DNA from: a virus
Taxonomy: Duplodnaviria > Heunggongvirae > Uroviricota > Caudoviricetes
Length of the DNA stretch: 64,000 nt
IMG/VR virus record: IMGVR_UViG_3300043410_000715
Span: 25,711 to 89,710 of that record
Reading direction: 5' to 3' (one strand)
Made by a program: the position numbers and the translations under genes. This document shows, piece after piece, positions 4,414-58,506 of this stretch (positions within the stretch are counted from its first letter, which is position 1; every line of letters begins with the position of its first letter). A model generated the notes under the pieces. That model was not told where the DNA came from. It did no database searches and saw only the letters and a program-made list of their open reading frames with translations.

Positions 4414-4442
4414 ATTATATACCCGAAACGATTTATTGTCAA
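4414..4442 (-). promoter_or_regulatory. sigma70-type promoter TTGACA-N17-TATAAT (member of repeated family)
   Basis: Minus strand reads TTGACAATAAATCGTTTCGGGTATATAAT. The -35 is at 4437-4442 and the -10 at 4414-4419, about 35 nt upstream of the ATG at 4379. Confidence 0.7.
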
Positions 4443-4657
4443 ATTTTGGCGTACTCGGGAACCACAGATTCACGTGCGGACAAGATTATGTCACGGACAC
4501 GTTCACGGTCTATACTATCACCGCAAAATTCTTCGCCTTCAGGCAAGCGGCATTTATAAAGTTGGGTAGCGAGACTGATTTGGGTTGCAGTAAACCCATA
4601 CTCAGGATAGATACCATTTGGACCATAAAATTCAAGCATGTATTGTGTGAAACTCAT
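4439..4657 (-). CDS. hypothetical protein
   Basis: 72-aa ORF preceded by a consensus promoter copy. Confidence 0.5.
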   Translation of the reverse strand: MSFTQYMLEFYGPNGIYPEYGFTATQISLATQLYKCRLPEGEEFCGDSIDRERVRDIILSARESVVPEYAKI

Positions 4658-4685
4658 ACGAACCCTTTCAACTGAATAAGACTAT

Positions 4686-4714
4686 ATTATATGCCCAAAA
4701 TGATTTATTGTCAA
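4686..4714 (-). promoter_or_regulatory. sigma70-type promoter TTGACA-N17-TATAAT (repeat family)
   Basis: Minus strand reads TTGACAATAAATCATTTTGGGCATATAAT, upstream of the ATG at 4657. Confidence 0.7.
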
Positions 4715-4914
4715 CCTTTTCTGAGGATATCAAACACCTCATTCAAATAGATGGATGCTTCGTCATGCTCCAAATAGAAGTCGGTAGTAGGATCGTAGTA
4801 CTTTCCTTCCTTAGGATCGTAATACAAAACTTTACCCGAGGGGTATGCGAACGGGCCCTCAAGACCTTTGCGGGGTTTGTAGTCATGTTTTGGAATGAAA
4901 CTAATGTAACTCAT
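4711..4914 (-). CDS. hypothetical protein
   Basis: ORF 4711-4986 trimmed to internal Met (MSYISFIPKH...) so that it no longer overlaps 4926-5186. Confidence 0.4.
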   Translation of the reverse strand: MSYISFIPKHDYKPRKGLEGPFAYPSGKVLYYDPKEGKYYDPTTDFYLEHDEASIYLNEVFDILRKG

Positions 4915-4925
4915 AAGTATTACCT

Positions 4926-5186
4926 TTAAGCAATGTTGAGTTGAACTTGAAGACCTTCCCAAGTACCTACGAGACCCATAGCACACTGGTCTGCGGCACC
5001 TTTGCCCGAACGGGTGAATTCGAGGGCGTCAAGAGCCTTTTGTATTGCGGCGTTACAGGTCATAAAGTCACCGACACCGCTACGAATCTGTTTAGCAGTT
5101 GCGTAGAATGAGACACCGCTAGTGATAACACCACCACCGATGATAACACGAAAATTTTGGGATTGCTTGAAACGCTTGATAGACAT
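4926..5186 (-). CDS. hypothetical protein
   Basis: 86-aa ORF directly downstream of the promoter copy at 5214-5242. Confidence 0.5.
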   Translation of the reverse strand: MSIKRFKQSQNFRVIIGGGVITSGVSFYATAKQIRSGVGDFMTCNAAIQKALDALEFTRSGKGAADQCAMGLVGTWEGLQVQLNIA

Positions 5187-5213
5187 ACAAACTCCTTTTG
5201 ACTCAATAGAAGA

Positions 5214-5242
5214 ATTATATGCCCAAAACGATTTATTGTCAA
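5214..5242 (-). promoter_or_regulatory. sigma70-type promoter TTGACA-N17-TATAAT (repeat family)
   Basis: Minus strand reads TTGACAATAAATCGTTTTGGGCATATAAT, a perfect consensus -35 and -10 with 17-nt spacer. Confidence 0.7.
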
Positions 5243-5475
5243 CCGTTTTTTAAGATATGGAACGTGAGTTCAGGTCCACCTACAAGACAGCATTGTGTTG
5301 TATACTTTAGCATACCTTCTTCACGCCAGCGCCCTGCACCAATGGGAATGACACGAACCTGCTTAGGTGTCACTTTAATAACTTTCCCAACATATAGGCT
5401 ATTGTGATGACAAAATGCAACATAGTCATCAATTTTGACCTCACGTCCTAGTAAATCATTGTGGTCTGCGTTCAT
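5239..5475 (-). CDS. hypothetical protein
   Basis: 78-aa ORF. Confidence 0.45.
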   Translation of the reverse strand: MNADHNDLLGREVKIDDYVAFCHHNSLYVGKVIKVTPKQVRVIPIGAGRWREEGMLKYTTQCCLVGGPELTFHILKNG

Positions 5476-5476: not shown

Positions 5477-6148
5477 TTAATATGTGTGTGAATAAACTAA
5501 AAACGGGGTCAATCCCAGACCATTTAAACGAATCTCAAGTCTACGCTTTGCGATATAGATATATGTTTTGCCGTACTCAGCATCAATCATGGGTATTGAA
5601 ATGCTACGCTTACCTTCTACTGTCATTTGAGAAACAAATTCAGCATCAGACAACGTGCTTTGTTCAACCTTCAACAAACAGTAGTAAACTTTTTTCGTTG
5701 TTTTCTCTCTAATGATTGCTAGCAAGTGTAAATTGTTTGTCCCCTTAGTTTTTTCAATCATAGGGTCAACAAACATTTCCTTCAACGCAACGAATTGTTT
5801 GCTCTCAAACAGTTTGCTAAAGCCATCATTTTCTTCTTTATTGTTTTGTAAAAAGCTAGCCTCAGTAGATTGCTTATCAGTAATCTTCCCTATACTAAGA
5901 CCCTTAACATCAAGATCGGCAATCGGGGCTTTAACATCAATCACATTCTTTCCAGCACCCATCCACTCTGCATTAGTGATGCTATCAGTAACAGCATATT
6001 CCCAAGTTTCTTTAGCTACCTGTATATCTCTATTCTTTGACAGAAAAGGAGCATAATACGATTGCATTTCTACGGCAAAGTTTTTGTTGAAGTCTTTACC
6101 GAGAATAGAATCATGGTCAGTGATGGGCACTGGTGTGAATTTAAGCAT
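5477..6148 (-). CDS. hypothetical protein
   Basis: 223-aa ORF. Its start overlaps the clpP stop by 8 nt. Confidence 0.55.
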
Positions 6149-6734
6149 TGCGTTTTGTTACGATTTCATCAATCAATCCGTACTCTAACGCCTCTTGTGC
6201 TGACATGAACTTATCACGATCCATGTCACGTTCAAAGTCCTCGTATGTTTTGCCCTTTGAATTGTGGCTAACATAGATTTCAGTTAGTCGCTTTTTCAAG
6301 TAAGTGATTTCCTTGTAACTGATTTCAATATCACTTTGCATACCACGAGCACCACCCGATGGCTGATGAATCATGTGTCGTGCATTGGGGAGCATAAACC
6401 TTTTGCCTGGCGCTCCCGCTTGTGCGAGGAGAGAACCCATACTACATGCCTGACCCATAACAATCGTCTGTACATCGGGACTAATAAACTGAATACAATC
6501 GTAGATCGCCATGCCTGCGGTAACACTACCACCGGGCGAGTTAATGTACATAGAAATGTCTTTTGTCGCATCTTCACTTTCCAAGAACAATAGTTGGGCA
6601 ACAATTAAGTTTGCCATGTGGTCATGAACTTCACCCTCTAGGAGAATGACACGGTCTTTTAGAAGGCGACTATAAATGTCATAACTACGCTCGCCTTTAC
6701 TTGTTGATTCAACAACGATTGGAACTAAACTCAT
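6141..6734 (-). CDS. clpP: ATP-dependent Clp protease proteolytic subunit ClpP
   Basis: 197 aa with ClpP signature blocks ([30 protein letters not shown]), the Ser/His/Asp triad context and an AAGGAG Shine-Dalgarno. Confidence 0.9.
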
Positions 6735-8907: not shown

Positions 8908-9228
8908 ATGTTAAACTATCTAAAGAAGTTGTTTGGTTTCGGTACATCTGAAACTGCACCTGAAGCACCATATAAAGTAGAAACGCCGGTTCAAGCTGGT
9001 CCTGCTAAATGTGGGTGTGGTCGCAGTCAGACAGGAAACTGTGTAGGTCTACACAAGTTGACCCCAGAAGAATGGGCTGTACACGCAGATAATCCAAACG
9101 CTACTAAAGCACCTGCGGCCGCAATGACAGCTAAGCCAAAGAAAGCTAAAGCACCTGCTAAGCCAAAAGCAGAAAAGACAGCAAAACCAAAGGCGCCTAA
9201 AAAGCCAAAAATGACCGTCGCAAAGTAA
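8908..9228 (+). CDS. Lys/Ala/Pro-rich histone H1-like DNA-binding protein
   Basis: 106 aa. AGGAG Shine-Dalgarno 7 nt upstream. The C-terminal half is AKPKKAKAPAKPKAEKTAKPKAPKKPK repeats. A CGCG motif sits near the N-terminus. Confidence 0.6.
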   Translation: MLNYLKKLFGFGTSETAPEAPYKVETPVQAGPAKCGCGRSQTGNCVGLHKLTPEEWAVHADNPNATKAPAAAMTAKPKKAKAPAKPKAEKTAKPKAPKKPKMTVAK

Positions 9229-10292: not shown

Positions 10293-10730
10293 TTATTTAG
10301 TGTAATTAATAGCAATTGCTTTTGGCTTCTTTTCTTCTGGAACAACACGTTCTAGTTGAATAGTTAGAATGCCGTCTTTTTGTGAAGCATTGATAACTTC
10401 AACGTGCTCTGCTAGCGTAAACTCACGCACGAAATCACGTGTGCTAATACCCTTGTGTAGGTATTCGGCTACCAAGTCTTCCTTCTTCTGACCCTTAACA
10501 GTCAATACTCGGTTGTCAAGATTGACCTCAACTTCACCTTCACTGAAGCCAGATACAGCAATCTCAATATCGAAGGAGTCTTCGGTATTTTTGACGATGT
10601 TGTATGGGGGATAGTTTAGTGATTGTTGACTGTTTAATCGCATCAAATCGTCAAACATGTTATCGAAACCGATACCAAATTTGTGAATTGACGGAATGTC
10701 GAGGGAACGAAGGGATAGTGTTTTTGTCAT
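10293..10730 (-). CDS. small heat shock protein (Hsp20 / alpha-crystallin family, IbpA-like)
   Basis: 145 aa. Alpha-crystallin domain (FDIEIAVSGFSEGEVEVNLDNRVLTVKGQK...GILTIQLERVVPEE). GGAGAAAA Shine-Dalgarno. Confidence 0.85.
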   Translation of the reverse strand: MTKTLSLRSLDIPSIHKFGIGFDNMFDDLMRLNSQQSLNYPPYNIVKNTEDSFDIEIAVSGFSEGEVEVNLDNRVLTVKGQKKEDLVAEYLHKGISTRDFVREFTLAEHVEVINASQKDGILTIQLERVVPEEKKPKAIAINYTK

Positions 10731-10837: not shown

Positions 10838-11059
10838 TCAATATAGTTTCTTGGGCAAGCTCTGGTCACGCAAGTATTTTTGCCATCTACGCTTGGCTTG
10901 TCCTTTAGCAAGTTTTCGCTTGACAGTGGGTTTGACGAATTCTTGACGGTCGCGGACTTCCTGAATCAATCCTTGTTCAGTAATCTTCTTTTTGAATTTG
11001 CGTAATGCTTTTTCAACATTCCCGTCTTGTACTATTACTCGTCTACCCTTTATACTCAT
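10838..11059 (-). CDS. rpsU: ribosomal protein bS21 homologue
   Basis: 73 aa basic protein. ...VEKALRKFKKK...EVRDRQEFVKPTVKRK aligns with bacterial S21 (ALRRFKR...EVRRREFYEKPTTERKR). Overlaps the clpX stop as ATGA. Confidence 0.8.
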   Translation of the reverse strand: MSIKGRRVIVQDGNVEKALRKFKKKITEQGLIQEVRDRQEFVKPTVKRKLAKGQAKRRWQKYLRDQSLPKKLY

Positions 11060-12258
11060 ATCAATGCTTTTGGTTCTAAAACTTGCTCCTGATTAATATT
11101 TATCTTTTTGATTTTACTTTCACGATATTTCTGCAAATTGAACATATGGGGCATTAGGACCCTCTCGATTTCAGTGTGTAGACCACGGGCACCCGTTTTC
11201 AGTTTCAAGCAATTGTCAACAATCTGGCCAAGTCCGTCATCAGCAAACTCCAACTCAATTTCATCAATGCTGAACAGGTACTTGTATTGCTCAATGTAGT
11301 TGTTTTTCACATTGGTCAGGACATGTTTTAACTCGTCTTTGGACAGTTCTTTAATACTTACAGTAGTCGTGAATCTACCGATAAATTCAGGAATCATTCC
11401 AAATTTAGTTAGGTCGTCGGGGCTTACTTGTGCTAACTCACCCTCTTTGCGCTTATCTCTGATATTTGCCCCAAAGCCAATACTAGTTCCATGTTGTCTA
11501 TTTGTGATGATTTCCTTCAATCCAACGAATGCGCCACCAGCAATGAACAGAATATTCTTTGTGTTGATTTCTAGCATTTCACCACCTGGGTGTTTGCGAC
11601 CACCGCTTGCAGGAATACGACAGACTGTGCCCTCAACTAACTTGAGTAATGCTTGCTGAACGCCCTCACCCGACACGTCACGGGTAACGCTAGTTGATTC
11701 GCCCTTACGTGCAATTTTGTCAATCTCGTCAACAAACACAATTCCACGTTCTGCTAATTTAGCATCACCACCTGCGGCATTGACTAGCATACTAATCATT
11801 GATTCAACGTCATCACCTACATAACCAGCTTCGGTTAAACTTGTTGCGTCTGCTACGACAAAGGGCACCTTGAGATACTTGGCAACTGTCTTAGCAAGTA
11901 ATGTTTTACCACTACCAGTGGGCCCCACAATAAGAACATTACCCTTAGCTATTTCTAAGTCTTTGGGCGGGTGTGTGATTCGCTTATAGTGGTTAGCGAT
12001 AGCAACGCTCAATACAGTTTTAGCACTATCTTGTCCGATAACATGCTGGTCTAAGTACGCCTTGATAGCGATAGGGTCATACTTGACTTCTTCTTTCTTT
12101 TGGTCAGGATCGGCAACGGTAGCGTCATCTTCGATTAATTGTGTGCATAAATCGATACAGTCGCTACAAATAGCAACGTCCTCACCTACTATAAGTTTTT
12201 TAACTTTATCTTTATGATTTCCGCAAAATGAGCAATGGTTTAGTGATTCAAGTGACAT
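11056..12258 (-). CDS. clpX: ATP-dependent Clp protease ATP-binding subunit ClpX
   Basis: 400 aa. N-terminal C4 zinc-binding domain (CSFCGN...CSDC), Walker A GPTGSGKT, Walker B VFVDEIDK, and a ClpX-specific IGFG-type pore-2 loop (IGFGANI). Confidence 0.9.
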   Translation of the reverse strand: MSLESLNHCSFCGNHKDKVKKLIVGEDVAICSDCIDLCTQLIEDDATVADPDQKKEEVKYDPIAIKAYLDQHVIGQDSAKTVLSVAIANHYKRITHPPKDLEIAKGNVLIVGPTGSGKTLLAKTVAKYLKVPFVVADATSLTEAGYVGDDVESMISMLVNAAGGDAKLAERGIVFVDEIDKIARKGESTSVTRDVSGEGVQQALLKLVEGTVCRIPASGGRKHPGGEMLEINTKNILFIAGGAFVGLKEIITNRQHGTSIGFGANIRDKRKEGELAQVSPDDLTKFGMIPEFIGRFTTTVSIKELSKDELKHVLTNVKNNYIEQYKYLFSIDEIELEFADDGLGQIVDNCLKLKTGARGLHTEIERVLMPHMFNLQKYRESKIKKININQEQVLEPKALI

Positions 12259-21468: not shown

Positions 21469-21497
21469 AGTATATCACGTTGAAAATTATTTGTCAA
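21469..21497 (-). promoter_or_regulatory. sigma70-type promoter TTGACA-N17-TATACT upstream of ligase
   Basis: Minus strand reads TTGACAAATAATTTTCAACGTGATATACT. The -35 is at 21492-21497 and the -10 at 21469-21474. Confidence 0.6.
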
Positions 21498-24048: not shown

Positions 24049-24059
24049 TCAATACAAGT

Positions 24060-24088
24060 ATTATACGCCCAAAATGATTATTTGTCAA
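24060..24088 (-). promoter_or_regulatory. sigma70-type promoter TTGACA-N17-TATAAT (repeat family)
   Basis: Minus strand reads TTGACAAATAATCATTTTGGGCGTATAAT. Confidence 0.65.
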
Positions 24089-24089
24089 A

Positions 24090-39825: not shown

Positions 39826-40646
39826 ACTTTTAACAACTCTTCCATCGTATACAAGTTACGCATATAAGGTGAAACATCTTCTAATACAGAAACAGCAAGA
39901 TCACCTTTTCTTCTAGGTCCATACTTTACATCAAAGTCACAATCGTTTACTTCCATAAATTTATTGACAATTTCACGAACAGTATATCCAACACCATGTC
40001 CCAATGATTCAACACTATTACTTGGTTTCTCTATTGCTTGCTTTAATGCATCACAAATCTCATTGACATGTACATAGTCACGAATACAAGTTCCATCAGG
40101 ACTTGCATCATAGTCCTTACCGAAAATAGTGAATTCTCCTGTTTCTCGGGCCTTCATTAAATTGTACATTAATCCATCGGGGTTAGTGGGAGCCACGACG
40201 GTGCTTCCAATAACATTATAAAATCTAAAGATTGTATATGGTGTCGGGCGATGGGTTGTACAATATTCTCCAACTACATCTTCTGCGGCTCTTTTGCTAA
40301 TACCGTATGCACTCTCACATCCAACTGCGGCACCTGTACTAGCAAAGATAAAGTTCTTTGTCTTGATTTTGTTAATCACATTCATTGTACCATTCAAGTT
40401 TGTGATGTAATACTGAATGGGTATTTGTTCGCTCTCACCCACATTAACTAATGCGGCTAAGTGAATAACGGCATCATATTCTTCTTCAATATTAAACAAT
40501 TTACGAATGTCAATCGTGTGATGCGTCTTGGGGAGTAGTTGCGGTGGATTAATGTCAAGCCCATGAACTTCATATTCATCTTGTAACATCTTAGTCAGAT
40601 GACTACCGATATATCCCGAGTTGCCTGTAATTAAAATCTTTTTCAT
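39822..40646 (-). CDS. NAD-dependent epimerase/dehydratase (short SDR-type sugar-nucleotide epimerase)
   Basis: 274 aa. N-terminal Rossmann motif ILITGNSGYIGSHL. Catalytic YxxxK (YGISKRA). Confidence 0.75.
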   Translation of the reverse strand: MKKILITGNSGYIGSHLTKMLQDEYEVHGLDINPPQLLPKTHHTIDIRKLFNIEEEYDAVIHLAALVNVGESEQIPIQYYITNLNGTMNVINKIKTKNFIFASTGAAVGCESAYGISKRAAEDVVGEYCTTHRPTPYTIFRFYNVIGSTVVAPTNPDGLMYNLMKARETGEFTIFGKDYDASPDGTCIRDYVHVNEICDALKQAIEKPSNSVESLGHGVGYTVREIVNKFMEVNDCDFDVKYGPRRKGDLAVSVLEDVSPYMRNLYTMEELLKV

Positions 40647-44011: not shown

Positions 44012-44632
44012 TTATCCTTGGTCAGTATCGTGTATACGCTTCTTTAAGAAGTTCAATAGAACACCATATGCTGGTAAGAACACAATAATACCTACTGCAA
44101 TCTTTAGGATAGTTTGACTCAATGCAATTTCACTCCAGTTAGCCGCCATGTATTCGTCTGCACTTTGATAGAATGCAACACTGAAGAATGTGTAACTATC
44201 AATAAAGTTTGCGGCAATCATTGATAATGCAGGAGCCGCCCACCATTGCTTAGTGAACTTCTCACGGACATATTGGAATACATATACATCAAGTAGTGTA
44301 CCTACTAAGTATGCTGTTGCACTAGCAAAACCAATACGCAATGCTACTGATTGAGGTGCTCCCTCTAACAATACAACTGCAATACTACCTAAGATAGCAA
44401 ATGGATATGCTGCCGCAATAGTTGCCCGTGCAATACCTTTACCTAGTAAACGGACTGTCAAGTCTGTTGCCAAAATAACTAATGGGAAGGTAAATGCCGC
44501 CCAAGTTAATTTAACACCTAAGATTTCAACTGGGATTGAAACCAATGCGTTTGAAATTATAATAACAATAACGTGCAATACTGCAAGCATTGCCATCATT
44601 TTCTTATCTACGTCTTTAAATAATGAAAACAT
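44012..44632 (-). CDS. yhhQ: queuosine-precursor (preQ0/preQ1) transporter, YhhQ/Vut (DUF165) family
   Basis: 206 aa, six TM helices. Size and topology match YhhQ. Sits within the que gene cluster. Confidence 0.7.
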   Translation of the reverse strand: MFSLFKDVDKKMMAMLAVLHVIVIIISNALVSIPVEILGVKLTWAAFTFPLVILATDLTVRLLGKGIARATIAAAYPFAILGSIAVVLLEGAPQSVALRIGFASATAYLVGTLLDVYVFQYVREKFTKQWWAAPALSMIAANFIDSYTFFSVAFYQSADEYMAANWSEIALSQTILKIAVGIIVFLPAYGVLLNFLKKRIHDTDQG

Positions 44633-44634
44633 TT

Positions 44635-45138
44635 TTACTCCTTAAATAAATCTTCATTCCACTCTCTATGACCTTCTCTGAAAGCCATATTGCTTTGAGT
44701 CTCCCGTACTTCTACACGGTAGCACCAAAGTCTTTTTGCTTCTCCCTCACCCCACATCTCAGGAATGTAAACACCATTGACATACTTGTATAGCATATCA
44801 CTTAGTGCTTCACAACCTAACGCAGGCAAGACGATGATTTTAGCCATCTTCTTTTCTTGTAATAGTTTGAATGTTTCCATTTCTGGATCATCTTGTGCTA
44901 CGATAAGTGTGTGGTCGAATTGATCTTCCAAGAACTTCTTCAATTCTTTTAGACCACCATAGTCGGCAGCCCAGTTACGGGCATCTAAATCGTTTGTACC
45001 GAAATAGAATTTCATACTGAAACTGTAACCATGAATTGTGTTGCAATGGCTGTCTGCACGCCATTGACGATAAGCACACGGAAACGCATCGTGGTATTCT
45101 TTTGTGCTTGTGTATTTGTATGTAATTGGATTATGCAT
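44635..45138 (-). CDS. queD: 6-carboxy-5,6,7,8-tetrahydropterin synthase QueD / PTPS-like
   Basis: Start moved to Met21 (AGGAGAAAAT Shine-Dalgarno). CNTIHGYSF matches the QueD zinc motif CGRLHGHSF. T-fold size. Confidence 0.75.
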   Translation of the reverse strand: MHNPITYKYTSTKEYHDAFPCAYRQWRADSHCNTIHGYSFSMKFYFGTNDLDARNWAADYGGLKELKKFLEDQFDHTLIVAQDDPEMETFKLLQEKKMAKIIVLPALGCEALSDMLYKYVNGVYIPEMWGEGEAKRLWCYRVEVRETQSNMAFREGHREWNEDLFKE

Positions 45139-45212
45139 ATTTTCTCCTATGTTAATTTTAGCATAGGACGCAGAATTTATATACCGGGGTGAGCCCATAA
45201 GACCGGTTTATG

Positions 45213-45674
45213 TTATTTACCATTTTCAGATTCAGCTACTCTTTTTCTCAAACTAGAACTTGAGAAACTATGGTCACGAGAGTTAAACACGTGTTCTATA
45301 CCTTTTTCGGTCCCTTCTTTTCTACCAGTAAAGTCCTGACTTTGATATTCGACACCGAGTATTCTAACGTCAACTGGAAGGATGAGGAGAAGGTCGATGA
45401 GGTCTTGTTCGGTTGAGTATACAACAACTTCATCAACAAAACGACACGATGCCAATTGTATTTGTCGCTCCACAATTGACTGTACAGGTTTATTCTTCGT
45501 ATCTGGTCTGTCGATAGTGGGGTCAGTTTGGAGTCCTGCAATAAGGTAGTCACAATGATTTTTAGCCTCAGCCAACATAGCAATGTGCCCTGCGTGAAGT
45601 AAGTCAAAAGTTGAGAATGTAATGCCAATCTTTTTGCCTGCTTCTTTAAGTTGTTTTATCTTGTTGAATATCAT
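45213..45674 (-). CDS. nucleotidyltransferase (cytidylyl/adenylyltransferase, TagD / RfaE domain II-like)
   Basis: 153 aa. HxGH motif (FDLLHAGH). Confidence 0.75.
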   Translation of the reverse strand: MIFNKIKQLKEAGKKIGITFSTFDLLHAGHIAMLAEAKNHCDYLIAGLQTDPTIDRPDTKNKPVQSIVERQIQLASCRFVDEVVVYSTEQDLIDLLLILPVDVRILGVEYQSQDFTGRKEGTEKGIEHVFNSRDHSFSSSSLRKRVAESENGK

Positions 45675-46241: not shown

Positions 46242-46371
46242 TATCTGGTGTGTTCTTTATAGTATAAAACATGAACAAGCCCGCCACACAAAATAAAAAT
46301 ATGTAAACTGCTTGTTCAATAATCATTCCAAGTAATAAACTCATGTTTGAAAGAAATTCAATCATTTGCAT
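46171..46371 (-). CDS. small membrane protein with Cys-rich C-terminus
   Basis: 66 aa. One TM helix. CTGNCNQGRNCNCKEKK tail. Confidence 0.4.
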   Translation of the reverse strand: MQMIEFLSNMSLLLGMIIEQAVYIFLFCVAGLFMFYTIKNTPDSACTGNCNQGRNCNCKEKKDGIS

Positions 46372-47042
46372 CCTTTGTTAGCAATTTGTAAGAACTCACC
46401 ACGTGCAGATGGATCTGTTTTGAAACCGCCACCCAATCGGCATGTAACTGTGCTGGATCCCGTATCTTCAACACCTCTTGATTTAACACAATAGTGTTGT
46501 GCGTCAATGAGGACTGCAACATCTTCAGTTTCAAGAATGAACTGAAGTGTGTGGAAGATTTGCTCGGTAAGACGTTCTTGGATCTGAGGTCGTTTACTAA
46601 AATACTCGACAATTCGATTAATCTTCGATAAGCCAAGGACTTTCTGCTTAGGAACATAAGCAACTGTAGCCAAGCCATCAATAACGACAAAGTGATGTTC
46701 GCAGTTACTTTGGACTGAAACGTTTCGTTCAACGACCATTTCGTTGTAGTGCATTTTGTTATCAACTGTAGTACACTTTGGAAATGCTTCATAATCTAGA
46801 CCCCAGAAAATTTCATTAACATACATTTTAGCAACACGCTTAGGTGTTTCAGTTAAACTATCATCAGTTAAGTCTAATCCTAAGATACGCATGATTTCAG
46901 TGAAGTGACCTTCGATGCCTGCAATTTGATCCTTGCGGTCGATGTTGCGTTTGTTGATTGGTGTTTCTACACCCATTTTGACTAAGTGCTCATGCACTTG
47001 TTGACCCAACTCAGGGTCGGTTTTTGTTTTGTTATAACTCAT
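46362..47042 (-). CDS. folE: GTP cyclohydrolase I FolE
   Basis: Start moved to MSYNKTKT (AAGGAAGGA Shine-Dalgarno). Aligns along its full length to E. coli FolE, including the CEHH zinc motif and the SKINR block. Confidence 0.9.
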   Translation of the reverse strand: MSYNKTKTDPELGQQVHEHLVKMGVETPINKRNIDRKDQIAGIEGHFTEIMRILGLDLTDDSLTETPKRVAKMYVNEIFWGLDYEAFPKCTTVDNKMHYNEMVVERNVSVQSNCEHHFVVIDGLATVAYVPKQKVLGLSKINRIVEYFSKRPQIQERLTEQIFHTLQFILETEDVAVLIDAQHYCVKSRGVEDTGSSTVTCRLGGGFKTDPSARGEFLQIANKGCK

Positions 47043-47077
47043 AGAATCCTTCCTTACGCGGATATGAAAATTGAAAT

Positions 47078-47097
47078 GTGCTACCGTTGTGTAGCAC
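47078..47097 (-). terminator. hairpin GTGCTAC-n6-GTAGCAC upstream of folE (possible terminator or attenuator)
   Basis: 7-bp perfect inverted repeat followed on the minus strand by ATTTCAATTTTCA. Confidence 0.3.
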
Positions 47098-47109
47098 ATG
47101 TATTTATAC

Positions 47110-49135: not shown

Positions 49136-50323
49136 TTAGTATTTGCTTTCTCTAGAATGTTTACGATAATCGGTTGACATACGAAGGTATTGTTCACCCT
49201 TCCCCTCAATGATATCACAGATACGGTCAATAGTCAAGTCAGTCCAGTCACTGATTTTACCCATGTTATCACTGGGCTTCTTCAATAACTTTTCAAGTTT
49301 GTCCAAAGCATCATCAATAGACCATGGTACGTAAAGTCTGGTATAATCATTTGCAAAAGTTTCTGGGAAACTCCTATAAGCAGGATACAACACATTGCAA
49401 CCAAGAGCGTCCGCTTCGGAAACTGTGTTACTAACCCAATCTTGTAAAGCACAGTTAAAAACAACACGACTATCATTGACAATATTATAGTAATCATTTT
49501 TGTTTAAATCCTCATGTAAAGTTAAGGTTCCTGCAGCCTGCATATTTCGGGTGCGTTGCATATAACTATCGTTGTTACTTTTTAATTTTGCACCTGAACA
49601 AATTGCAAACTCTACACCACTTCCAGGATGACGTTTGTGCCAAGCATCAATTAAATCCATATAGAAGTCTGGTTGTTTTTCTTGATCCCATCGTGCTGAG
49701 AACACGACACGATGTTTGCGTTCATTGAATGGTTTGATTGTACCAACTCGTTCAATTACTTCTTGTTTACCAAATGCTAGACCACTGATATTGTAGATTG
49801 GAACTTCCCAACCTGCAATCTTCATGTTCATGACCATTTCTTCGTTAGACGCAAGGATAGCACCCCCACTTTGACTGACAGCCTCACACACCATCTGTTC
49901 ATATAGCCCCATCCACTTGGACATCCCCCATACATGCACAAAGTCATCAGGGTCGATTGACTGAGCCAAGCATCTAACAAAAATCTTTGGACGATGCGAC
50001 TGAGGGACCTGATTAAGAATATAAGGCAAACTCTCAAAGCCTGGTTGAAACATATCTTCAAAGTAGATAACATCTTCACTTGTAACAATTCCTTCTTTCA
50101 TCCACTTGACCAATGTCATTAATTGACTCATGCCAAAATAACTACGACCATGTGCATCTAATACTTGACCTGTTACGATTTGTTGGTCTGTAGATAATGT
50201 TTCACCGGGTACTACTACATAGTCAATACCTCTACGCTTAAAGACACGCTCATTCCACTCTGTGAGTTGTAGAGTGTATCTTGCTTTGTAGGGTTCTAGA
50301 CCCATGTAATATAGTGTTCTCAT
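49136..50323 (-). CDS. glycosyltransferase (GT-B fold)
   Basis: 395 aa with two Rossmann-like halves. Overlaps the upstream nucleotidyltransferase by ATGA. Confidence 0.6.
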   Translation of the reverse strand: MRTLYYMGLEPYKARYTLQLTEWNERVFKRRGIDYVVVPGETLSTDQQIVTGQVLDAHGRSYFGMSQLMTLVKWMKEGIVTSEDVIYFEDMFQPGFESLPYILNQVPQSHRPKIFVRCLAQSIDPDDFVHVWGMSKWMGLYEQMVCEAVSQSGGAILASNEEMVMNMKIAGWEVPIYNISGLAFGKQEVIERVGTIKPFNERKHRVVFSARWDQEKQPDFYMDLIDAWHKRHPGSGVEFAICSGAKLKSNNDSYMQRTRNMQAAGTLTLHEDLNKNDYYNIVNDSRVVFNCALQDWVSNTVSEADALGCNVLYPAYRSFPETFANDYTRLYVPWSIDDALDKLEKLLKKPSDNMGKISDWTDLTIDRICDIIEGKGEQYLRMSTDYRKHSRESKY

Positions 50324-51096
50324 TCTTTTCTCTCAATATCTTCTTCTACACATTCTTCACCGTATTGTATTTCTACAATACGACAAGGAATTTCATATGG
50401 GTTAATTAACTGATGCCAATCACCTTTAGGAATATGTTTACTATGATGTTCATTTAATAACGTTACTGGCAAAACATAACCATTTGGCATCATGCTATTG
50501 ACATGACACATACCATGTGTAACTAGCCAATATTCATTACGCTTAAAATGTTTTTGCATACTAAGACGTTGACCAGGTTCAATTGTTAGTTCTTTAACTT
50601 TGCATCCTGATACTTCGTGTAGTATACGATAATATCCCCATGGTCGCATTATTTTAGGTTGCTTCCATTCTTGCAATATCCAAGAACTGGAATTCATTTT
50701 GTTTTCACCACCGACGCCGAAAACAAAATTAACATCATCAAATACCATTTCTGGAATGTTGTTTTTATTTCTATCGCCACCGTTAGCAAAAATGATTTCA
50801 TCATTTGGATACATCATTTTTACATTACGAATAGCTTCGATGCTAGAACCATCGTCATCGTTATAGATAACACAATGATCTACCATTTTTAAATTCTCAA
50901 TGATTGACATACGTTCAGCAATAGGCATAAAAGGTTGGCCCTTTTTACGAGCCAACCATGCGTCACTGTTTACGCCAACAACTAACTTGTCGCCTAACTG
51001 TTTTGCGGCTTTGAAATATTCAATATGACCGCTATGTAGTGGATCAAATCCACCAGTGACTAAAACTATTTTCATGGACGTGCGTGTTCCACCCAT
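50320..51096 (-). CDS. sugar-phosphate nucleotidyltransferase (RfaE domain II-like) fused to C-terminal cupin
   Basis: 258 aa. N-terminal TGGFDPLHSGHIEYFKAAKQLGDKLVVGVNSDAWLARKKG matches the RfaE II motif [40 protein letters not shown]. C-terminal cupin motifs (QKHFKRNEYWLVTHG). Confidence 0.7.
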   Translation of the reverse strand: MGGTRTSMKIVLVTGGFDPLHSGHIEYFKAAKQLGDKLVVGVNSDAWLARKKGQPFMPIAERMSIIENLKMVDHCVIYNDDDGSSIEAIRNVKMMYPNDEIIFANGGDRNKNNIPEMVFDDVNFVFGVGGENKMNSSSWILQEWKQPKIMRPWGYYRILHEVSGCKVKELTIEPGQRLSMQKHFKRNEYWLVTHGMCHVNSMMPNGYVLPVTLLNEHHSKHIPKGDWHQLINPYEIPCRIVEIQYGEECVEEDIERKE

Positions 51097-54275: not shown

Positions 54276-54673
54276 TAAGGTACCATTGATGGTTTATATT
54301 GCTCACCTTCGTTACCAGAACTTTTCAACAGAGTTGTTACCATTTTGATTTGGTCTTCTTTCTGCTTAATTTGTTCTACTAAGTCTTTGATAGCAGGATT
54401 CTTTTCGGCAAGTTGCTCACGTTCTATTTCTTCATTACGTTTCTGGCGAGCCCAGTTTAATAGTGATTCAACTTCCGGAGATAGACCAATGCTCATTGAA
54501 CCCATGTTTAATTGAATCCAAGTAGTACCATCAAATACTTCAGTCCTTTGACTTGTAGTATTGTATCTCATATTACCTACACCCTGAGCACCACTGTACC
54601 CATTCACATAAGTACTACCTGGGGCACCAGATACAACGACTGAGCTAGAAGATGAAAAGATATTACCTATCAT
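54275..54673 (-). CDS. hypothetical protein
   Basis: 132-aa ORF. Confidence 0.5.
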   Translation of the reverse strand: MIGNIFSSSSSVVVSGAPGSTYVNGYSGAQGVGNMRYNTTSQRTEVFDGTTWIQLNMGSMSIGLSPEVESLLNWARQKRNEEIEREQLAEKNPAIKDLVEQIKQKEDQIKMVTTLLKSSGNEGEQYKPSMVP

Positions 54674-55401
54674 TTTGCCTGTGCAGGGAGTAAGTAACGA
54701 TATGTTGCAATACCGCTGTTAACTGTGATTTCTGTAGCGCCAGCATCGCTAATGCGAACAGTTTTATCACCGACTAAGTCCATAATACTAATAAACTGTT
54801 TAACAGGCCACATCCATGCTTTGTTTAATGTTCCAGTAACACCTGGTTGAAACACAAAATTACCACTGTGTGTGCTTGGATCTCCGAAATAAATCTTTAA
54901 GTCAGAACCATCAGTTTTTGTAGTGAAGTGCGCTTCTTCGCTGTTTGCACTTGCTTGTTTCTTTAGACGCTGAATACCTGCAACAGTTGGTTCAAACTCA
55001 ACGTTCCATGCGGCACCTTTAAATACAACAACCTTCACTTTTTCTTCAACGATGTTTTTGTTCATCAATCGATAGTCGTTAACGAAACTACCGTCTTTAG
55101 TTTCAAAGTGAATTGTAGTTGGTACGTCTTCATTATCACGTTTTGTTTTAACAACATTAACAATAGATGTATCGTCATAATCATCAAAGCTGATGATAGT
55201 CTTAAGTTTGCTCAAGTTGGGCATACCGAAGGTACCTTCAAAGTCAATGATGGGAGTACTAAATGTACCAGAAACGATTACAGATTTATCTTCTGCAATT
55301 GCGTTGATGGTTGTTTCAGTTTGTGTACCAGTAACCTTGATTAGTTCGATACAGCCTAGACCAAATGTATGGTCGATTAAATCTTTTAAATAGTCTTTCA
55401 T
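54670..55401 (-). CDS. putative sliding clamp (gp45-like)
   Basis: 243-aa ORF immediately downstream of the DNA polymerase gene. Call rests on T4-type synteny and protein size. No strong motif. Confidence 0.4.
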   Translation of the reverse strand: MKDYLKDLIDHTFGLGCIELIKVTGTQTETTINAIAEDKSVIVSGTFSTPIIDFEGTFGMPNLSKLKTIISFDDYDDTSIVNVVKTKRDNEDVPTTIHFETKDGSFVNDYRLMNKNIVEEKVKVVVFKGAAWNVEFEPTVAGIQRLKKQASANSEEAHFTTKTDGSDLKIYFGDPSTHSGNFVFQPGVTGTLNKAWMWPVKQFISIMDLVGDKTVRISDAGATEITVNSGIATYRYLLPAQAK

Positions 55402-55432
55402 GTTTGTCCTTTGTGTTAAGTATTTAGGAAAG

Positions 55433-55461
55433 TATAGTGTGTATTATGATGGAATATATTG
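55433..55461 (-). promoter_or_regulatory. sigma70-type promoter TTGACT-N17-CATAAT
   Basis: Minus strand reads TTGACTTTCGCAATATATTCCATCATAAT, upstream of the clamp gene. Confidence 0.5.
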
Positions 55462-55479
55462 CGAAAGTCAACAGTTCAT

Positions 55480-58194
55480 TTAACCGAATGAGAATAAATC
55501 ATCAAATGTTGACTTAACATCAATGTTGTTTTTGATTTCCCAATCAAGTACACCTAATAAGTTTTCAATTTTTTCATCTACTAATGTTTGTTCCATTGCT
55601 TCGTCATCGAATGGCAAATCAATGAACCATTGTGGTAGTCGTAATTCGTCAGTTGGATATGCGATACTAGTAAATCCTAACGCATTGTTCTTCAACTTAC
55701 ATACAACTACCTTCATACCGTCAACGATTTTTTGACTGTATTGATCTCCGTTTACTCTGCGTAAATAGTTGTAATTCAATGCCGCACGAACGTGCCCGGG
55801 CATGTTCTCACGACCTTTTTTACTATTGGCTTCTAAGTCACCATAGTATGTAAGTTTGTTAACTGACTTGGGTGAACCTTTAGTCCAACTGTCTTGTGCT
55901 GATAATACTCGCTTAAAGTCTTTAACGACCTCAATGACCTCGTCACGTCCTTTACCTTCTTGTATTACCATACCCAATACTTGCATTAAGAAATCTTGTA
56001 CTTGTTTTGGAGTATCAGCACGTTTCAAGTCAAGACCCATAGCCTTGATATCACCGGCTTTACCGTCTTTGTCTTTACGCTTACCTTCTTTGTCAAAGAT
56101 GTTAATTGCATAACGCTTCTTTGTGATGAAGATACTGCGATCACCGATCAATTCACGACCAGCTTTAATAATCTCACCATTCCTGCGAGGAGCATGAAAT
56201 GCTTTCTCCATGAATGCTGGGAAACTATTGTTTGCTTCATCAGCAATTGAATCATACAAGCCGATGCAAGTTTCTTTATCCCATGCCATTTCACCATTTT
56301 GTATTTGTGTTCTGAGAGCAGGATATGCAGAGAAATAACACGAGTCAGTGTCACCATATACAATTGCTTCACCTTCGTGTGTATACTCTCCGGTAACTAC
56401 ACTATTGATTTGGCTCATCATGTGTCTAACAATTTGACGACCTGACAATGTAACTGACTGACCAATACGCTTGTCATAGAAACGACAGTGTTCGTTCAAC
56501 AATGCACCATAAGCACTGTTCAATAAAATCTTACGAACCAATTGACGCTTATCGTAATATTCACGATCCTGATCGGTTGTCGCTTCCTTCACTTGTTTCT
56601 GAATAGATTTACGTTCAGTGTACCAACGTGAAAGCAGTCCAGGAATGACACCTTCTTTTTCATAAGTAAAGATTGTGCCGTTTGCTGACAGCATCCATGG
56701 GCGATGACTATCAAATACCATCTTCCATATTTCTGCCGCAGACATTTCTTCACTATGACCATCTTCATAGTCAACATAAAGCATAGTGCCACGCTCTTGG
56801 TTCATAATTGCTGTGTACTCTAAAGCACCAAACAAGTTTTCCCATAGAATCGCACCCCACACTTCATCACCTTCTTTAGCACGTTTCTTTGCGGCACCTA
56901 ATCGTTGTGCCTTTTCTTTCATGTACTTGTCGGTGAGTGTTTGTCTGACTTGGGCAACAATAGTTTCGCCCGCCATGTTGAGCGCCCGGATGACTGAGGG
57001 GTAGAGTGAGTTAATATCGACTGCCCCGACCCATTCGTGCATTCCTCTTTTCGGCGTAGCAACATAGGCACCTGCCGCTTGTTGTTCATCATCGTCATTT
57101 TCAACCTTTCTTTTCTTATCAGGAACTACTAAACCTCTTGCATGTGCTTCGTTGTAGATTGCCATTTCAATCATAGCAACAGAGCCCATAACTGTTGGCA
57201 AGAGAACTGTGTTCTCATGCGCCAATGCGTTTGCTAAATCTAAGAATTTAAGTTTGTTGTGAATTTTAACCAACAACATCGTATCTTGTCTGTTATACTC
57301 TAAGAACTTGAGCCAGTCCTTGTTGTATAGTTGATCCAACGTACCTTCGTATTGTGTCTTGTTCTCACCGACTTCCATTTCACCAATGAAGTCTAGTTTA
57401 TAACTATGGCGTGATTCATAGTTGTACTTTTTATACAACTGTAAATAGTCCATGTGAATGCGACCAACCAAATCGTATGTTTGTTCTTCTTTACCGAAAC
57501 GTTCATACATTCTTGGTTTAGGAAGTTGACCCATTAAACAAAATCTGCGTGTGTCATCTTTGCTCATTACTCGTGTAACACGATTGACCATGTATGGAAT
57601 ATCATAGCCTTCTGAGTTCCAACCCGTCAACACATCTGCATCTTCAATCAGCATAAAGAATGTATCAAACATATCTTTTTCAGTATCAAAGATTAAACAA
57701 TTTTCAAACTGACTTGCAATTTCTTGTGCTGTTTCTTTACTCATGTGCTTAGGTGGAATACACAATGTTACCAATGTGTCTTGCCAATCCAAATACAATG
57801 AGATAGCAGTTACTGGGTTGAATGGGTCGTTCGTAGGACTAAAGCCTTTATCAGGGTCAAAGTCTACCTCAATGTCAAAGAAGCATGTGTGTAACTTAGG
57901 TGGTTCAACACCTAAATAGTTATCACTTAAGCAACGAAATACTACGTTAATGTCACTCTCATAAAGAGGTTTACTATTGTAGATACGTCTTTCTTTTTCA
58001 AATTCACTACGCTTGCGTGTACTGAAACGAGAAACAGGTTCGCCGTAGATACTACGTTGCTTACCCTTTGAATCGGGATAATAAAAAACATAATTAGCAG
58101 GGTAATCTTTATATTGTCGTTTACCATTAGGATCACGTTCGACTACGTATACACGATCCTCGTCCCTGCTGTGAACAGCATCAACGTAACTCAT
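55480..58194 (-). CDS. family B DNA polymerase (T4 gp43-like) with 3'-5' exonuclease domain
   Basis: 904 aa. Exo motifs FDIE (Exo I) and YNRQD (Exo III). Pol motifs DINSLYPS (motif A), KILLNSAYG (motif B) and YGDTDS (motif C). Confidence 0.9.
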   Translation of the reverse strand: MSYVDAVHSRDEDRVYVVERDPNGKRQYKDYPANYVFYYPDSKGKQRSIYGEPVSRFSTRKRSEFEKERRIYNSKPLYESDINVVFRCLSDNYLGVEPPKLHTCFFDIEVDFDPDKGFSPTNDPFNPVTAISLYLDWQDTLVTLCIPPKHMSKETAQEIASQFENCLIFDTEKDMFDTFFMLIEDADVLTGWNSEGYDIPYMVNRVTRVMSKDDTRRFCLMGQLPKPRMYERFGKEEQTYDLVGRIHMDYLQLYKKYNYESRHSYKLDFIGEMEVGENKTQYEGTLDQLYNKDWLKFLEYNRQDTMLLVKIHNKLKFLDLANALAHENTVLLPTVMGSVAMIEMAIYNEAHARGLVVPDKKRKVENDDDEQQAAGAYVATPKRGMHEWVGAVDINSLYPSVIRALNMAGETIVAQVRQTLTDKYMKEKAQRLGAAKKRAKEGDEVWGAILWENLFGALEYTAIMNQERGTMLYVDYEDGHSEEMSAAEIWKMVFDSHRPWMLSANGTIFTYEKEGVIPGLLSRWYTERKSIQKQVKEATTDQDREYYDKRQLVRKILLNSAYGALLNEHCRFYDKRIGQSVTLSGRQIVRHMMSQINSVVTGEYTHEGEAIVYGDTDSCYFSAYPALRTQIQNGEMAWDKETCIGLYDSIADEANNSFPAFMEKAFHAPRRNGEIIKAGRELIGDRSIFITKKRYAINIFDKEGKRKDKDGKAGDIKAMGLDLKRADTPKQVQDFLMQVLGMVIQEGKGRDEVIEVVKDFKRVLSAQDSWTKGSPKSVNKLTYYGDLEANSKKGRENMPGHVRAALNYNYLRRVNGDQYSQKIVDGMKVVVCKLKNNALGFTSIAYPTDELRLPQWFIDLPFDDEAMEQTLVDEKIENLLGVLDWEIKNNIDVKSTFDDLFSFG

Positions 58195-58454
58195 TAAACA
58201 GTTTTACCAACGGTTTCTAAAATTGTGTTAAGTTCTTCGTTTTCTGCGTTTGTTTGTGTTAGGCTTGCTTTGTGTGCAACACGAATAGCCTTTTTGAGTA
58301 CAGAAGGTTTGACTTCTAGTTCTTCTGCGATTGCTTTAATTGTATCGTTTAGACCTTCATTCAACGTATCAATCTCATGTAATACGGTCATGCCTTCATT
58401 AACAAGTTGTGTTAATTTGATTTTCTGGTCACCACTAAACATTTTTGCTGTCAT
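58194..58454 (-). CDS. hypothetical protein
   Basis: 86-aa ORF. ATGA overlap with the polymerase start. Confidence 0.5.
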   Translation of the reverse strand: MTAKMFSGDQKIKLTQLVNEGMTVLHEIDTLNEGLNDTIKAIAEELEVKPSVLKKAIRVAHKASLTQTNAENEELNTILETVGKTV

Positions 58455-58476
58455 AAATATCTCCTAAAGAAGTAGT

Positions 58477-58506
58477 TAGTATATATGAGCAACGCAACAA
58501 AGTCAA
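58477..58506 (-). promoter_or_regulatory. sigma70-type promoter TTGACT-N18-TATACT
   Basis: Minus strand reads TTGACTTTGTTGCGTTGCTCATATATACT, upstream of 58194-58454 and the polymerase gene. Confidence 0.45.

Follow-up and report, generated by a model that had tools for sequence, protein, structure and literature searches.

The stretch of DNA analysed here (the window) comprises 64,000 nucleotides (nt) of the IMG/VR virus record IMGVR_UViG_3300043410_000715 (positions 25,711 to 89,710 of that record), has a G+C content of ~38% and carries nearly all of its genes on the minus strand. It derives from an uncultured jumbo phage of the T4 superfamily, whose genome, at more than 200 kb, it covers in part. 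Dispersed through it are copies of a sigma70-type promoter, TTGACA-N17-TATAAT, whose mutual similarity runs beyond the -10 hexamer into the leader. A preliminary description had listed thirteen such sites as a single family with a conserved 17-nt spacer. This family proved to be real and not a product of chance, but only five of the listed sites are full members by weight matrix; two others are partial members, five are generic promoters and one is a poor match. The five full members, referred to below as class-A cassettes, are the following.

5184 to 5248, minus strand: class-A cassette 1 (53.6 bits), -35 hexamer TTGACA at 5242-5237, -10 hexamer TATAAT at 5219-5214
4655 to 4720, minus strand: class-A cassette 2 (61.0 bits), -35 hexamer at 4714-4709, -10 hexamer at 4691-4686
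4377 to 4448, minus strand: class-A cassette 3 (57.0 bits), -35 hexamer at 4442-4437, -10 hexamer at 4419-4414
24031 to 24094, minus strand: class-A cassette 4, a variant (46.1 bits), TTGACA-AATAATCATTTTGGGCG-TATAAT at 24088-24060
24414 to 24481, minus strand: class-A cassette 5, degenerate (40.8 bits), TTGACA-ATAAATCACTTTGGCTA-TACAAT at 24475-24447

Each of these cassettes lies directly 5' of a small gene encoding 66-174 amino acids (aa), with 26-34 nt between the end of the -10 hexamer and the ATG, and PHROGs supplied no function for any of the five downstream genes. Four copies have the perfect TTGACA-N17-TATAAT arrangement and the fifth has TACAAT. They are clustered, with three copies within 830 bp at 4.4-5.2 kb and two within 420 bp at 24.0-24.5 kb. 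Cassette 1 has AAACGG 5' of the -35 hexamer, the spacer ATAAATCGTTTTGGGCA and a 27-nt leader with AAAGGAG (ATG at 5186); cassette 2 combines the spacer ATAAATCATTTTGGGCA with a 28-nt leader (ATG at 4657), and cassette 3 the spacer ATAAATCGTTTCGGGTA with a 34-nt leader that contains CAGGAG (ATG at 4379). In these three copies, the TGA within the -35 hexamer (5241-5239, 4713-4711 and 4441-4439, respectively) is the stop codon of the upstream open reading frame (ORF; 5239-5475, 4711-4914 and 4439-4657), so the cassettes delimit the small genes at 3.8-5.5 kb even more tightly than had been claimed. The leader of cassette 4 is acttgtattgaatgaaaaggaattat (ATG at 24033), and the ORF upstream of it (24090-24416) stops with TAA directly 5' of the -35 hexamer. 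Cassette 5 has the leader TGACTTATTGATTGATTAAAGGAG (ATG at 24416); its upstream ORF (24428-25054) crosses the promoter and ends in a TTGATTGATTAA stretch, which is the commonest leader type and provides stops in all three frames.

Several searches set these copies apart from the background. With at most one mismatch, TTGACA-N17-TATAAT occurs nine times in the window, always on the minus strand, against 1.28 occurrences expected from shuffles, and the full 29-mer with at most three mismatches occurs three times against an expectation of 0.00. A position weight matrix made from 216 cassettes of related phages, when run over the window and 20 shuffles, placed just five window sites at 40.8-61 bits, left the range from 8 to 40 bits empty and found no matches in any of the shuffles. 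Likewise, a repeat finder returned one tight five-copy family in the window.

The family extends well beyond this phage. The exact pattern TTGACAATAAATCRTTTYGGGYRTATAAT, which was used for searches of IMG/VR and of cellular genomes, matched at least 117 IMG/VR stretches, with coding DNA that shares 65-82% identity with the window. The same motif had no matches in 185,579 bacterial and archaeal species genomes and hence is not a host promoter or a prophage element. Among cultured phages, a distant search with a 60-nt cassette gave only chance matches, and a near-identity search found no DNA-level match to the window; in the searched literature, the motif string matched nothing other than two unrelated papers on mouse biology. 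The motif-selected stretches yielded 233 unique cassettes, a set of 216 cassettes had distinct flanks, and membership in class A was set at no more than four mismatches. When sites in these stretches were picked by their hexamers alone, the distance of their spacers from the family spacer was bimodal: 281 sites had 0-3 mismatches, and another maximum lay at 8-13, that of random 17-mers being at 12. An independent set, comprising 80 of 315 loci and chosen solely by homology of the phage DNA ligase (78-91% aa identity), is bimodal as well: 86 sites have 0-3 mismatches, the counts dip at 5-6, and a broad second maximum spans 7-14. Of the 48 loci of this set that are at least 8 kb long, 33 contain class A. 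This bimodality in a sample blind to the motif bears out the earlier proposal that the spacer is conserved by more than chance and beyond the needs of sigma70. The family is therefore real, specific to the clade and previously undescribed for it, with five copies in the window and hundreds in its relatives.

The 216 cassettes with distinct flanks define the anatomy of the unit. Information content jumps 2 nt 5' of TTGACA, stays high through the spacer and the -10 hexamer, and continues at a lower level for ~25 nt up to the Shine-Dalgarno sequence; this conserved transcribed leader was absent from the preliminary description. Upstream of the -35 hexamer there is just a short, weak AAAAGG (0.2-0.9 bits per position) and no conservation more than 8 nt 5' of the hexamer. 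In order, a cassette of ~55-60 bp thus consists of the weak AAAAGG, TTGACA, ATAAAT, three variable bases, TTTGGGYA, TATAAT, and an A/T-rich leader of ~25 nt that ends in AAGGAG. In the independent set, the spacer reads wTAAAT beside the -35 hexamer, CRT or GGN in the middle, and TTTGGGYA beside the -10 hexamer, and both the CRT and the GGN forms are found within single contigs. Conserved spacer bases had thus been correctly recognized, but the blocks are ATAAAT and TTTGGGYA with three variable bases between them, not AAATCG and TTTGGGC. Most promoters of the clade that fall outside the family have the ATAAAT block as well. The other block distinguishes two designs: TATAAT occurs with GGG or TTTGGG in 185 cases and with the extended -10 element TGn in 14, whereas the weaker TATACT and TACAAT favour TGn (40 cases, against 11 with GGG), and TTTGGG is accompanied by TATAAT in 89 of 91 instances in the independent set. 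Positions -15 and -14 of class A are G and Y, not T and G; class A has neither TGn nor any UP-like conservation beyond AAAAGG, and TGn is largely limited to the other promoter class of the clade. The leaders fall into discrete types, for example ACWTGTATTGATTGATTAAAGG and AGAATCTTAGACAGT, with leader positions strongly linked to each other and only weakly to the spacer variants.

Comparison of orthologous cassette-gene pairs (at most four mismatches) revealed spacers that were 85-88% identical at any divergence of the gene, and hexamers that were 99% identical, while third codon positions of the same pairs were 52-73% identical and the 33 nt upstream of the cassette 27-35% identical, the level of unrelated sequences. 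Outside its three middle bases, the spacer does not vary freely in these further copies. The upstream flanks are unrelated even where the downstream proteins are 85-97% identical. Cassettes from the same contig are not much more alike than cassettes from different contigs (mean spacer mismatches of 2.39 and 2.62, and mean leader mismatches of 8.98 and 10.64, respectively), and the spacer polymorphisms at positions 13 and 21 are unlinked (p = 0.5). These patterns argue for position-specific constraint on the spacer blocks and the leader, which would not be expected from recent copying or gene conversion alone.

We detected no secondary structure characteristic of the family. Neither the 55 nt preceding each of the five window cassettes (z from -1.9 to +1.1) nor the cassettes themselves (z from -1.6 to +1.2, compared to -2.4 for a corresponding element of phage RB49) fold better than shuffles. 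A hairpin or cruciform was rejected for class A on the basis of this folding; pairing of upstream AAAACGG with TCGTTTT of the spacer is available in one copy only, that at 5214. The short hairpin motif AAGTAATACTT, which recurs 5' of terminators in the relatives, is not enriched in the window (five found, 2.6 expected), and no match to IHF, DnaA-box or Dam sites was seen by eye in the spacer. In the relatives, a GC hairpin with a T-run, that is, a terminator, lies just upstream of ~25-30 of the 113 cassettes that come after an intergenic gap. Some of these GC-rich terminators preceding class-A cassettes (L079:~9040-9090, and in L016, L082 and L013) have an AT-rich inverted repeat, GTAATACTTAGTATTAC or AAAGTAGTACTTT-n-AGTACTACTTT, just on their 5' side; one weak copy of this repeat (AAAAAGTAATACTTTTT) is found in the window at 26360-26370.

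The view that these elements are sigma70-type promoters of early-type phage genes gains from their perfect hexamers, their 17-nt spacing and their uniform location on the minus strand, like the genes; in the relatives, too, all cassettes are co-directional with the genes. Among the 233 unique cassettes, the start codon lies 26-34 nt past the -10 hexamer or, in 19 cases, exactly 6 nt past it; four starts are found at 11 nt and none at 5, 7 or 8 nt. The independent set repeats this pattern, with nine leaderless arrangements at exactly 6 nt. Since a leaderless mRNA must begin at the A of its ATG, the start site in such copies would be the seventh base after the -10 hexamer, which is the canonical position. 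The 6-nt layout is also found at the phage 5'-3' exonuclease gene of the window (see below) and has been kept by several of its diverged orthologues (L004, L044, L061, L066 and L105), behind different promoters. The trade-off between TGn and the quality of the -10 hexamer likewise fits recognition by sigma70.

To characterize the surroundings of the cassettes, we called ORFs and protein families in the window and 117 loci. For proteins that are 80-95% identical, the upstream neighbour is common to both loci in 6 of 83 cases (7%) when a cassette lies in between and in 438 of 639 cases (68.5%) when it does not. Other identity bins below 95% behave alike, and at 95% identity or more the difference is nearly gone (87% vs 95%). 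For genes flanked by a cassette on the downstream side alone, the upstream neighbour was conserved in 60% of comparisons and the one beyond the cassette in 6.5%. Similarly, 31 of the 101 blastn homology endpoints in two cassette regions of the window fall into the 17-nt zone at the -35 edge, which accounts for 1.5% of the bases (a ~20-fold enrichment), and many of them lie exactly at the first T of TTGACA. In one relative (L034), the 78-aa gene upstream of the cassette at 5214 is followed by a different gene, and the pair of genes found downstream in the window (4711-5186) is located elsewhere on the contig. The cassettes are thus associated with breakpoints.

The upstream ORF stops at the TGA of the -35 hexamer in 107 of the 233 cassettes, and in 12 it reads through in the other two frames; in the independent set, 31 stop there and nine read through, so that overall ~34-46% of copies use this TGA. 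Together with the stops that TTGATTGATTAA supplies in all three frames, this feature indicates that the modules are translationally insulated. ORFs behind class-A cassettes have a median length of 82 aa, compared to 125 aa behind other promoters (p = 2e-5), and the median spacing in class-A arrays is 336 nt. In several relatives (L029:4211-4581, L006:3850-4220 and L049:1962-2332), a 109-113-aa GIY-YIG-like protein (VIYYIQD...YYIGLT...R...E...N) is repeatedly encoded behind a leaderless class-A cassette, and a 74-aa membrane protein is found in the same position in relatives; the window has no homologue of either. Any link between this GIY-YIG-like small nuclease and mobility of the cassettes is speculation.

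Taken together, these observations suggest that the five tight copies are probably early promoter cassettes of a T4-superfamily jumbo phage that double as junctions for the exchange of gene modules, the second role following from the presence of the same cassette in front of many unrelated genes. Host RNA polymerase with sigma70 would bind the perfect hexamers at their optimal 17-bp spacing and would begin transcription ~7 nt past the -10 hexamer, each cassette driving one small gene. The spacer blocks and the leader might tune polymerase binding or promoter escape, or might be read by a phage factor. Recombination between related phages could then swap "promoter + gene" modules with the cassette as the junction, as has been proposed for the promoter-early stem-loop (PeSL) elements of T4-type phages; recombination is a mechanism that we infer from the positions of the breakpoints. 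Of the additional functions suggested in the preliminary description, a recombination motif is accordingly the best supported, since both synteny and homology blocks break at the cassettes, as they do at PeSLs, and there is no sign of an origin or a free-standing operator, the spacer core being located within intact promoters in 163 of its 165 occurrences.

A number of points weigh against this reading. Promoter activity, start sites and timing are all deduced from the sequence of an uncultured phage. ATAAAT and TTTGGGYA match no described sigma70 contact or element, so optimization for RNA polymerase fails to explain their invariance, although their position adjoining the hexamers suggests contacts with the polymerase or a polymerase-bound factor. 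Genes with a cassette upstream have poorly conserved downstream neighbours as well (12.8%), and the synteny breaks could reflect the plastic surroundings of the cassettes rather than exchange caused by them; the underlying ORF calls, moreover, are crude. Finally, the class-A sets in the motif-selected analyses were defined by similarity cut-offs, which inflates the apparent conservation; the bimodality of the ligase-chosen set reduces this concern without removing it.

The invariance of the spacer, which exceeds the known needs of sigma70, and its sharp block structure raise the possibility that ATAAAT and/or TTTGGGYA form the binding site of a phage-encoded or virion-delivered protein and that class A, with this site overlapping the promoter, is a separately regulated temporal class. 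Such a protein might be a repressor that shuts off the immediate-early genes or a polymerase-modifying or activating factor like T4 Alt or MotA; we consider this unlikely, though less so than the other alternatives. It would account for the two discrete designs, TTTGGG with TATAAT and TGn with a weaker -10 hexamer, which go with different gene classes, and for the clade-specificity indicated by the lack of the motif in 185,579 bacterial species genomes and in cultured phages, and there is a precedent in the Alt-dependent stimulation of T4 promoters, which depends on promoter features beyond the hexamers (PMC2988021). However, the spacer is neither self-complementary nor palindromic and has no dyad symmetry of the kind seen in operators of dimeric repressors, and its core is practically never free-standing; these properties argue against a classical dimeric operator but not against a monomeric or polymerase-associated factor. 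Apart from a sub-threshold DsbA-like match, Pfam and PHROGs revealed no DNA-binding regulator, sigma factor or anti-sigma factor among ~70 scanned proteins of the window, which is a partial genome, and ATAAAT, being present in nearly all promoters of the clade, cannot define a class alone. A more specific version, in which ATAAAT (~-29 to -24) and TTTGGGYA (~-20 to -13, in the place of TGn) constitute a clade-specific promoter code that is not read by free host sigma70 holoenzyme, we likewise regard as doubtful; it might be read by a polymerase that the phage has modified, or by a polymerase-bound phage protein that is made early or delivered with the virion.

The breakpoints could also be a sign of dedicated mobility, with site-specific recombination or nuclease-stimulated homing acting at or near T|TGACA in the manner of integron cassettes. 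Homology blocks very often stop precisely at the initial T of TTGACA, upstream ORFs terminate at the -35 TGA beyond what frame chance allows (107 vs 12), and the GIY-YIG-like gene of the relatives recurs behind leaderless class-A cassettes. Endpoints at the edge are, however, to be expected wherever a conserved cassette adjoins unrelated DNA, and the frame bias is explicable if C-terminal read-through tails are selected against. The surroundings of the cassettes revealed no recombinase, the GIY-YIG gene is missing from the window, and in RB49 the crossovers are spread inside the PeSLs, which is consistent with homologous recombination (PMC2839356). Dedicated mobility thus appears quite improbable. 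Even less credit can be given to the idea that the spacers resemble each other merely as a by-product of recent duplication or concerted evolution (gene conversion), their bases being functionless. The copies are indeed clustered, T4-type phages recombine intensely, and the T4-type lineages (RB49, T4 and the clade of the window) each have a cassette signature of their own, but the blocks are kept across relatives at 65-82% coding identity, cassettes are hardly more alike within contigs than between them, and the middle three bases vary within a single contig while the flanking blocks are fixed and the polymorphisms unlinked. Concerted evolution alone was rejected on these orthologue, contig and middle-base comparisons. 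Just as improbable seems the idea that AATAAAT beside the -35 hexamer is a late promoter of the T4 type (consensus TATAAATA, recognized by a gp55-like sigma factor), with TTTGGG as the late start region and hence dual early and late expression. Many T4 early genes also carry late promoters, AATAAATS matches TATAAATA at six of eight positions, and the block is found in nearly all promoters of the clade. The last base, however, is C or G rather than A (position 12: A 28, C 69, G 83, T 27), TATAAATA is not enriched in the window (three found, 5.9 expected), and small early ORFans have no reason for late expression.

The remaining sites on the earlier list, apart from that at 26652-26680, are as follows.

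34108 to 34145, minus strand: partial member, TTGACA-ATAAATCAAAATAGTAG-TATACT, left block only
26290 to 26351, minus strand: partial member, TTGACA-ATAAACCCCATAGTGTGT-CATAAT with an 18-nt spacer, 5' of a lipoprotein-like gene (25058-26323)
21469 to 21497, minus strand: generic sigma70-like promoter, TTGACA-17-TATACT with TGn, 25 nt 5' of the DNA ligase ATG (21443)
32446 to 32474, minus strand: generic promoter, TTGACA-17-TATACT, 37 nt 5' of an SPFH/Band 7 gene (ATG at 32408)
35626 to 35654, minus strand: generic promoter, TTGACT-17-TACACT with TGn, 5' of a UvdE-like gene in a divergent intergenic region
55443 to 55471, minus strand: generic promoter, TTGACT-17-CATAAT, 41 nt 5' of ORF 54670-55401
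58478 to 58506, minus strand: generic promoter, TTGACT-17-TATACT, 23 nt 5' of the 86-aa ORF 58194-58454, which precedes the DNA polymerase gene

Some coordinates given previously had to be corrected, namely 24437-24465 to 24447-24475 (cassette 5), 32435-32463 to 32446-32474, 55433-55461 to 55443-55471, and 58477 to 58478. The proposed distance of 25-40 nt to the start codon holds for most sites (34, 28, 27, 25, 26, 30, 28 and 37 nt from the end of the -10 hexamer) but not for those at 58478 (23 nt), 55443 (41 nt) and 34117 (6 nt, a leaderless layout). The spacers of the generic sites are unrelated to that of the family (10-14 mismatches out of 17 in the three sites that were scored). These promoters and the partial members are ordinary sigma70 promoters of the phage, often with the extended -10 element TGn where the family has TTTGGG. 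At 26652-26680, the best arrangement is TTGATT-17-CATAAT (9 of 12 positions) and by eye TGATTA matches TTGACA at two of six positions, so this site was discarded as a member: there is no credible promoter.

The two partial members share with the family only the left block, TTGACAATAAAyC. The -10 hexamer of the site at 34117-34145 is followed after exactly 6 nt by the ATG (34110) of the 5'-3' exonuclease gene (33094-34110; RNase H/FEN-like), and this distance predicts a leaderless exonuclease mRNA. The site at 26290-26351 contains a perfect 13-bp inverted repeat (CCCATAGTGTGTC / GACACACTATGGG; -22.1 kcal/mol, z = -5.05) that spans the spacer, the -10 hexamer and the leader, its 5' arm lying in the spacer and its 3' arm just 5' of the TTTTCC-ATG of the lipoprotein-like gene. 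Judging from this layout, the hairpin would form in read-through transcripts but not in transcripts from the site's own promoter. Similar repeats that connect spacer and leader were seen in the relatives, in 5-8 of 100 non-family promoters compared to 0-1 in shuffles; several precede genes whose products start like signal peptides. The divergent region at 35596-35680 separates the minus-strand UvdE-like gene from the only sizeable plus-strand block (35.6-39.8 kb); it contains GATAAATA at 35610-35617 on the plus strand, which matches the T4 late-promoter consensus at seven of eight positions and lies ~57 nt 5' of the likely ATG at 35674.

Among the other genes of the window, the family-B DNA polymerase shares 42-48% identity with its counterparts in the jumbo phages Phosso, Atu_ph07, XaC1 and RaK2. 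The 86-aa ORF just 5' of its gene (58194-58454, minus strand) gave a sub-threshold match to the T4 DsbA transcription regulator (PF11126; 23.6 bits, with a cut-off of 25). The DNA ligase that accompanies the 5'-3' exonuclease is ATP-dependent, and UvdE and superoxide dismutase genes are present as well. The phage also encodes ClpP (E = 1e-80), a ClpX-like ATPase with a zinc finger and an Hsp20 small heat-shock protein (6141-6734, 10293-10730 and 11056-12258, all on the minus strand). Genes for sugar-nucleotide metabolism and glycosyltransferases are found alongside a set of genes for GTP cyclohydrolase I, QueD and YhhQ; specifically, genes for GTP cyclohydrolase I, a 6-pyruvoyl-tetrahydropterin synthase (QueD-like), a YhhQ/Vut_1 transporter and a radical-SAM protein lie near those for an epimerase, a cytidylyltransferase, mannose-6-phosphate isomerase and a glycosyltransferase. 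This pterin/sugar gene group occupies the following positions.

37830 to 39125, plus strand: pterin/sugar gene group
44012 to 45198, minus strand: pterin/sugar gene group
46362 to 47099, minus strand: pterin/sugar gene group
39822 to 41998, minus strand: pterin/sugar gene group
45213 to 45674, minus strand: pterin/sugar gene group
49136 to 51096, minus strand: pterin/sugar gene group

The group looks like a module for 7-deazaguanine and/or sugar modification, possibly on the phage DNA. No tRNA genes and no Rfam matches were found in the window. As regards the host, the window encodes a homologue of the TctC/"Bug"-family periplasmic receptors (61310-62269, minus strand); this family is much expanded in Betaproteobacteria, which gives a weak hint. 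The phage ClpX is ~50% identical to proteins from many phyla, with a top match of 60% on a contig of unclear origin in a Haliscomenobacter metagenome-assembled genome, and is uninformative in this respect. A 40-mer from the polymerase gene of the window had no match in IMG/VR, but the 315 ligase relatives in that database show that the clade is common in metagenomes. Two of them, L211 (IMGVR_UViG_3300027749_002876, 524,565 bp) and L219 (IMGVR_UViG_3300043418_000114, 364,247 bp), have ligases 82-84% identical to that of the window. Barring concatemers or misassemblies among these contigs, some genomes of the clade may thus be very large.

The cassette offers a precise, searchable marker of the early genes of this clade and of the joints at which its genes are swapped, and it extends the PeSL idea well past the classical T4-like phages, with the stem-loop appearing dispensable. 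Its invariant spacer bases, for which no sigma70 contact is known, make a testable case of promoter information outside the canonical elements. Should the promoter code considered above turn out to be true, a factor would separate the immediate-early mini-genes from the other sigma70 promoters of the phage, and the 55-bp unit would also be a standard connector for gene exchange across abundant uncultured jumbo phages. As a compact and apparently very strong promoter-leader unit with built-in stops, the cassette might also become a synthetic-biology part if it functions in tractable hosts.

Elements with some of these properties are known from other phages. In the strong early promoters of coliphage T5, as Gentz and Bujard in 1985 and Kammerer and colleagues in 1986 are said to have found, conserved sequence outside the hexamers, including the first ~20 transcribed bases, adds to promoter strength. 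T5 belongs to an unrelated phage group and its conserved sequences differ from those of the window family; we know of no role in gene shuffling described for its early promoters. In the T4 lysozyme gene e, the promoter reportedly lies within a hairpin that masks the ribosome-binding site of read-through transcripts (work attributed to McPheeters and colleagues, 1986). This likeness is limited to the partial member at 26290-26351 and does not concern the five class-A cassettes; moreover, the promoter of gene e is of the late type, whereas that at 26290-26351 is of the sigma70 type.

The early promoters of T4 are closer to the window family in that they are strong host-sigma70 promoters that head prereplicative genes and have conserved positions beyond the canonical elements. 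Their consensus extends past the UP, -35, TGn and -10 elements (Hinton 2010, PMC2988021) and includes a GT-rich stretch 5' of position -12 (Nolan et al. 2006, PMC1524935), which appeared as rTGG in our scan of T4. In contrast to the T4 promoters, with their GTTTAC/TTTACW -35 hexamer, UP element and TGn, the window family has TTGACA, no UP element, no TGn, and GGG at -17 to -15. The ATAAAT block beside the -35 hexamer is absent from T4 and RB49 promoters.

The closest parallel is with the PeSLs, composite early-promoter/stem-loop motifs of the T4-type phages RB49/phi1, PST/T4 and nt-1/KVP40 (Arbiol et al. 2010, PMC2839356; Comeau et al. 2014, PMC4122927). PeSLs lie between ORFans, at indels between close relatives, and recombine into mini-circles; those of RB49 and phi1 have near-perfect TTGACA-N17-TATAAT promoters, and the stem-loop is of the GN-loop-CN type in RB49 and terminator-like and located upstream in PST and nt-1 (PMC2839356, PMC4122927). 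In RB49, experimentally mapped crossovers fall at various points inside the PeSLs (PMC2839356). In the 100 kb of RB49 that we scanned, TTGACA-GGGGATCnnnGATCCCC-TATAMT was found approximately ten times, preceded by a conserved AAAAAGTTG and followed by the conserved leader acacacatc...ggagaatcaaaATG, the spacer being the stem-loop itself. Dispersed consensus promoters with a conserved spacer were therefore already on record. In both families, early promoters of the sigma70 type are dispersed and very much alike, not only in the hexamers but also between them and from there to the Shine-Dalgarno sequence and ATG, and both are found among small ORFans in plastic regions, where they coincide with insertions, deletions and replacements. 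Unlike the PeSLs, the window copies lack a stem-loop both within the spacer and 5' of the promoter, the conserved part of their spacer is a pair of non-palindromic blocks, the AT-rich region 5' of the -35 hexamer is represented by no more than the short, weak AAAAGG, and the -35 hexamer often supplies the upstream stop codon; the PeSL phages are also only distantly related to the window phage, the DNA polymerase of which is no more than 42-48% identical to its best matches. The concept is anticipated by the T4 early promoters and the PeSLs, and the family described here is an elaboration of known T4 biology rather than a new principle: a cassette that works like a PeSL yet lacks its stem-loop, and thus a variant of the portable promoter cassettes of T4-type phages.

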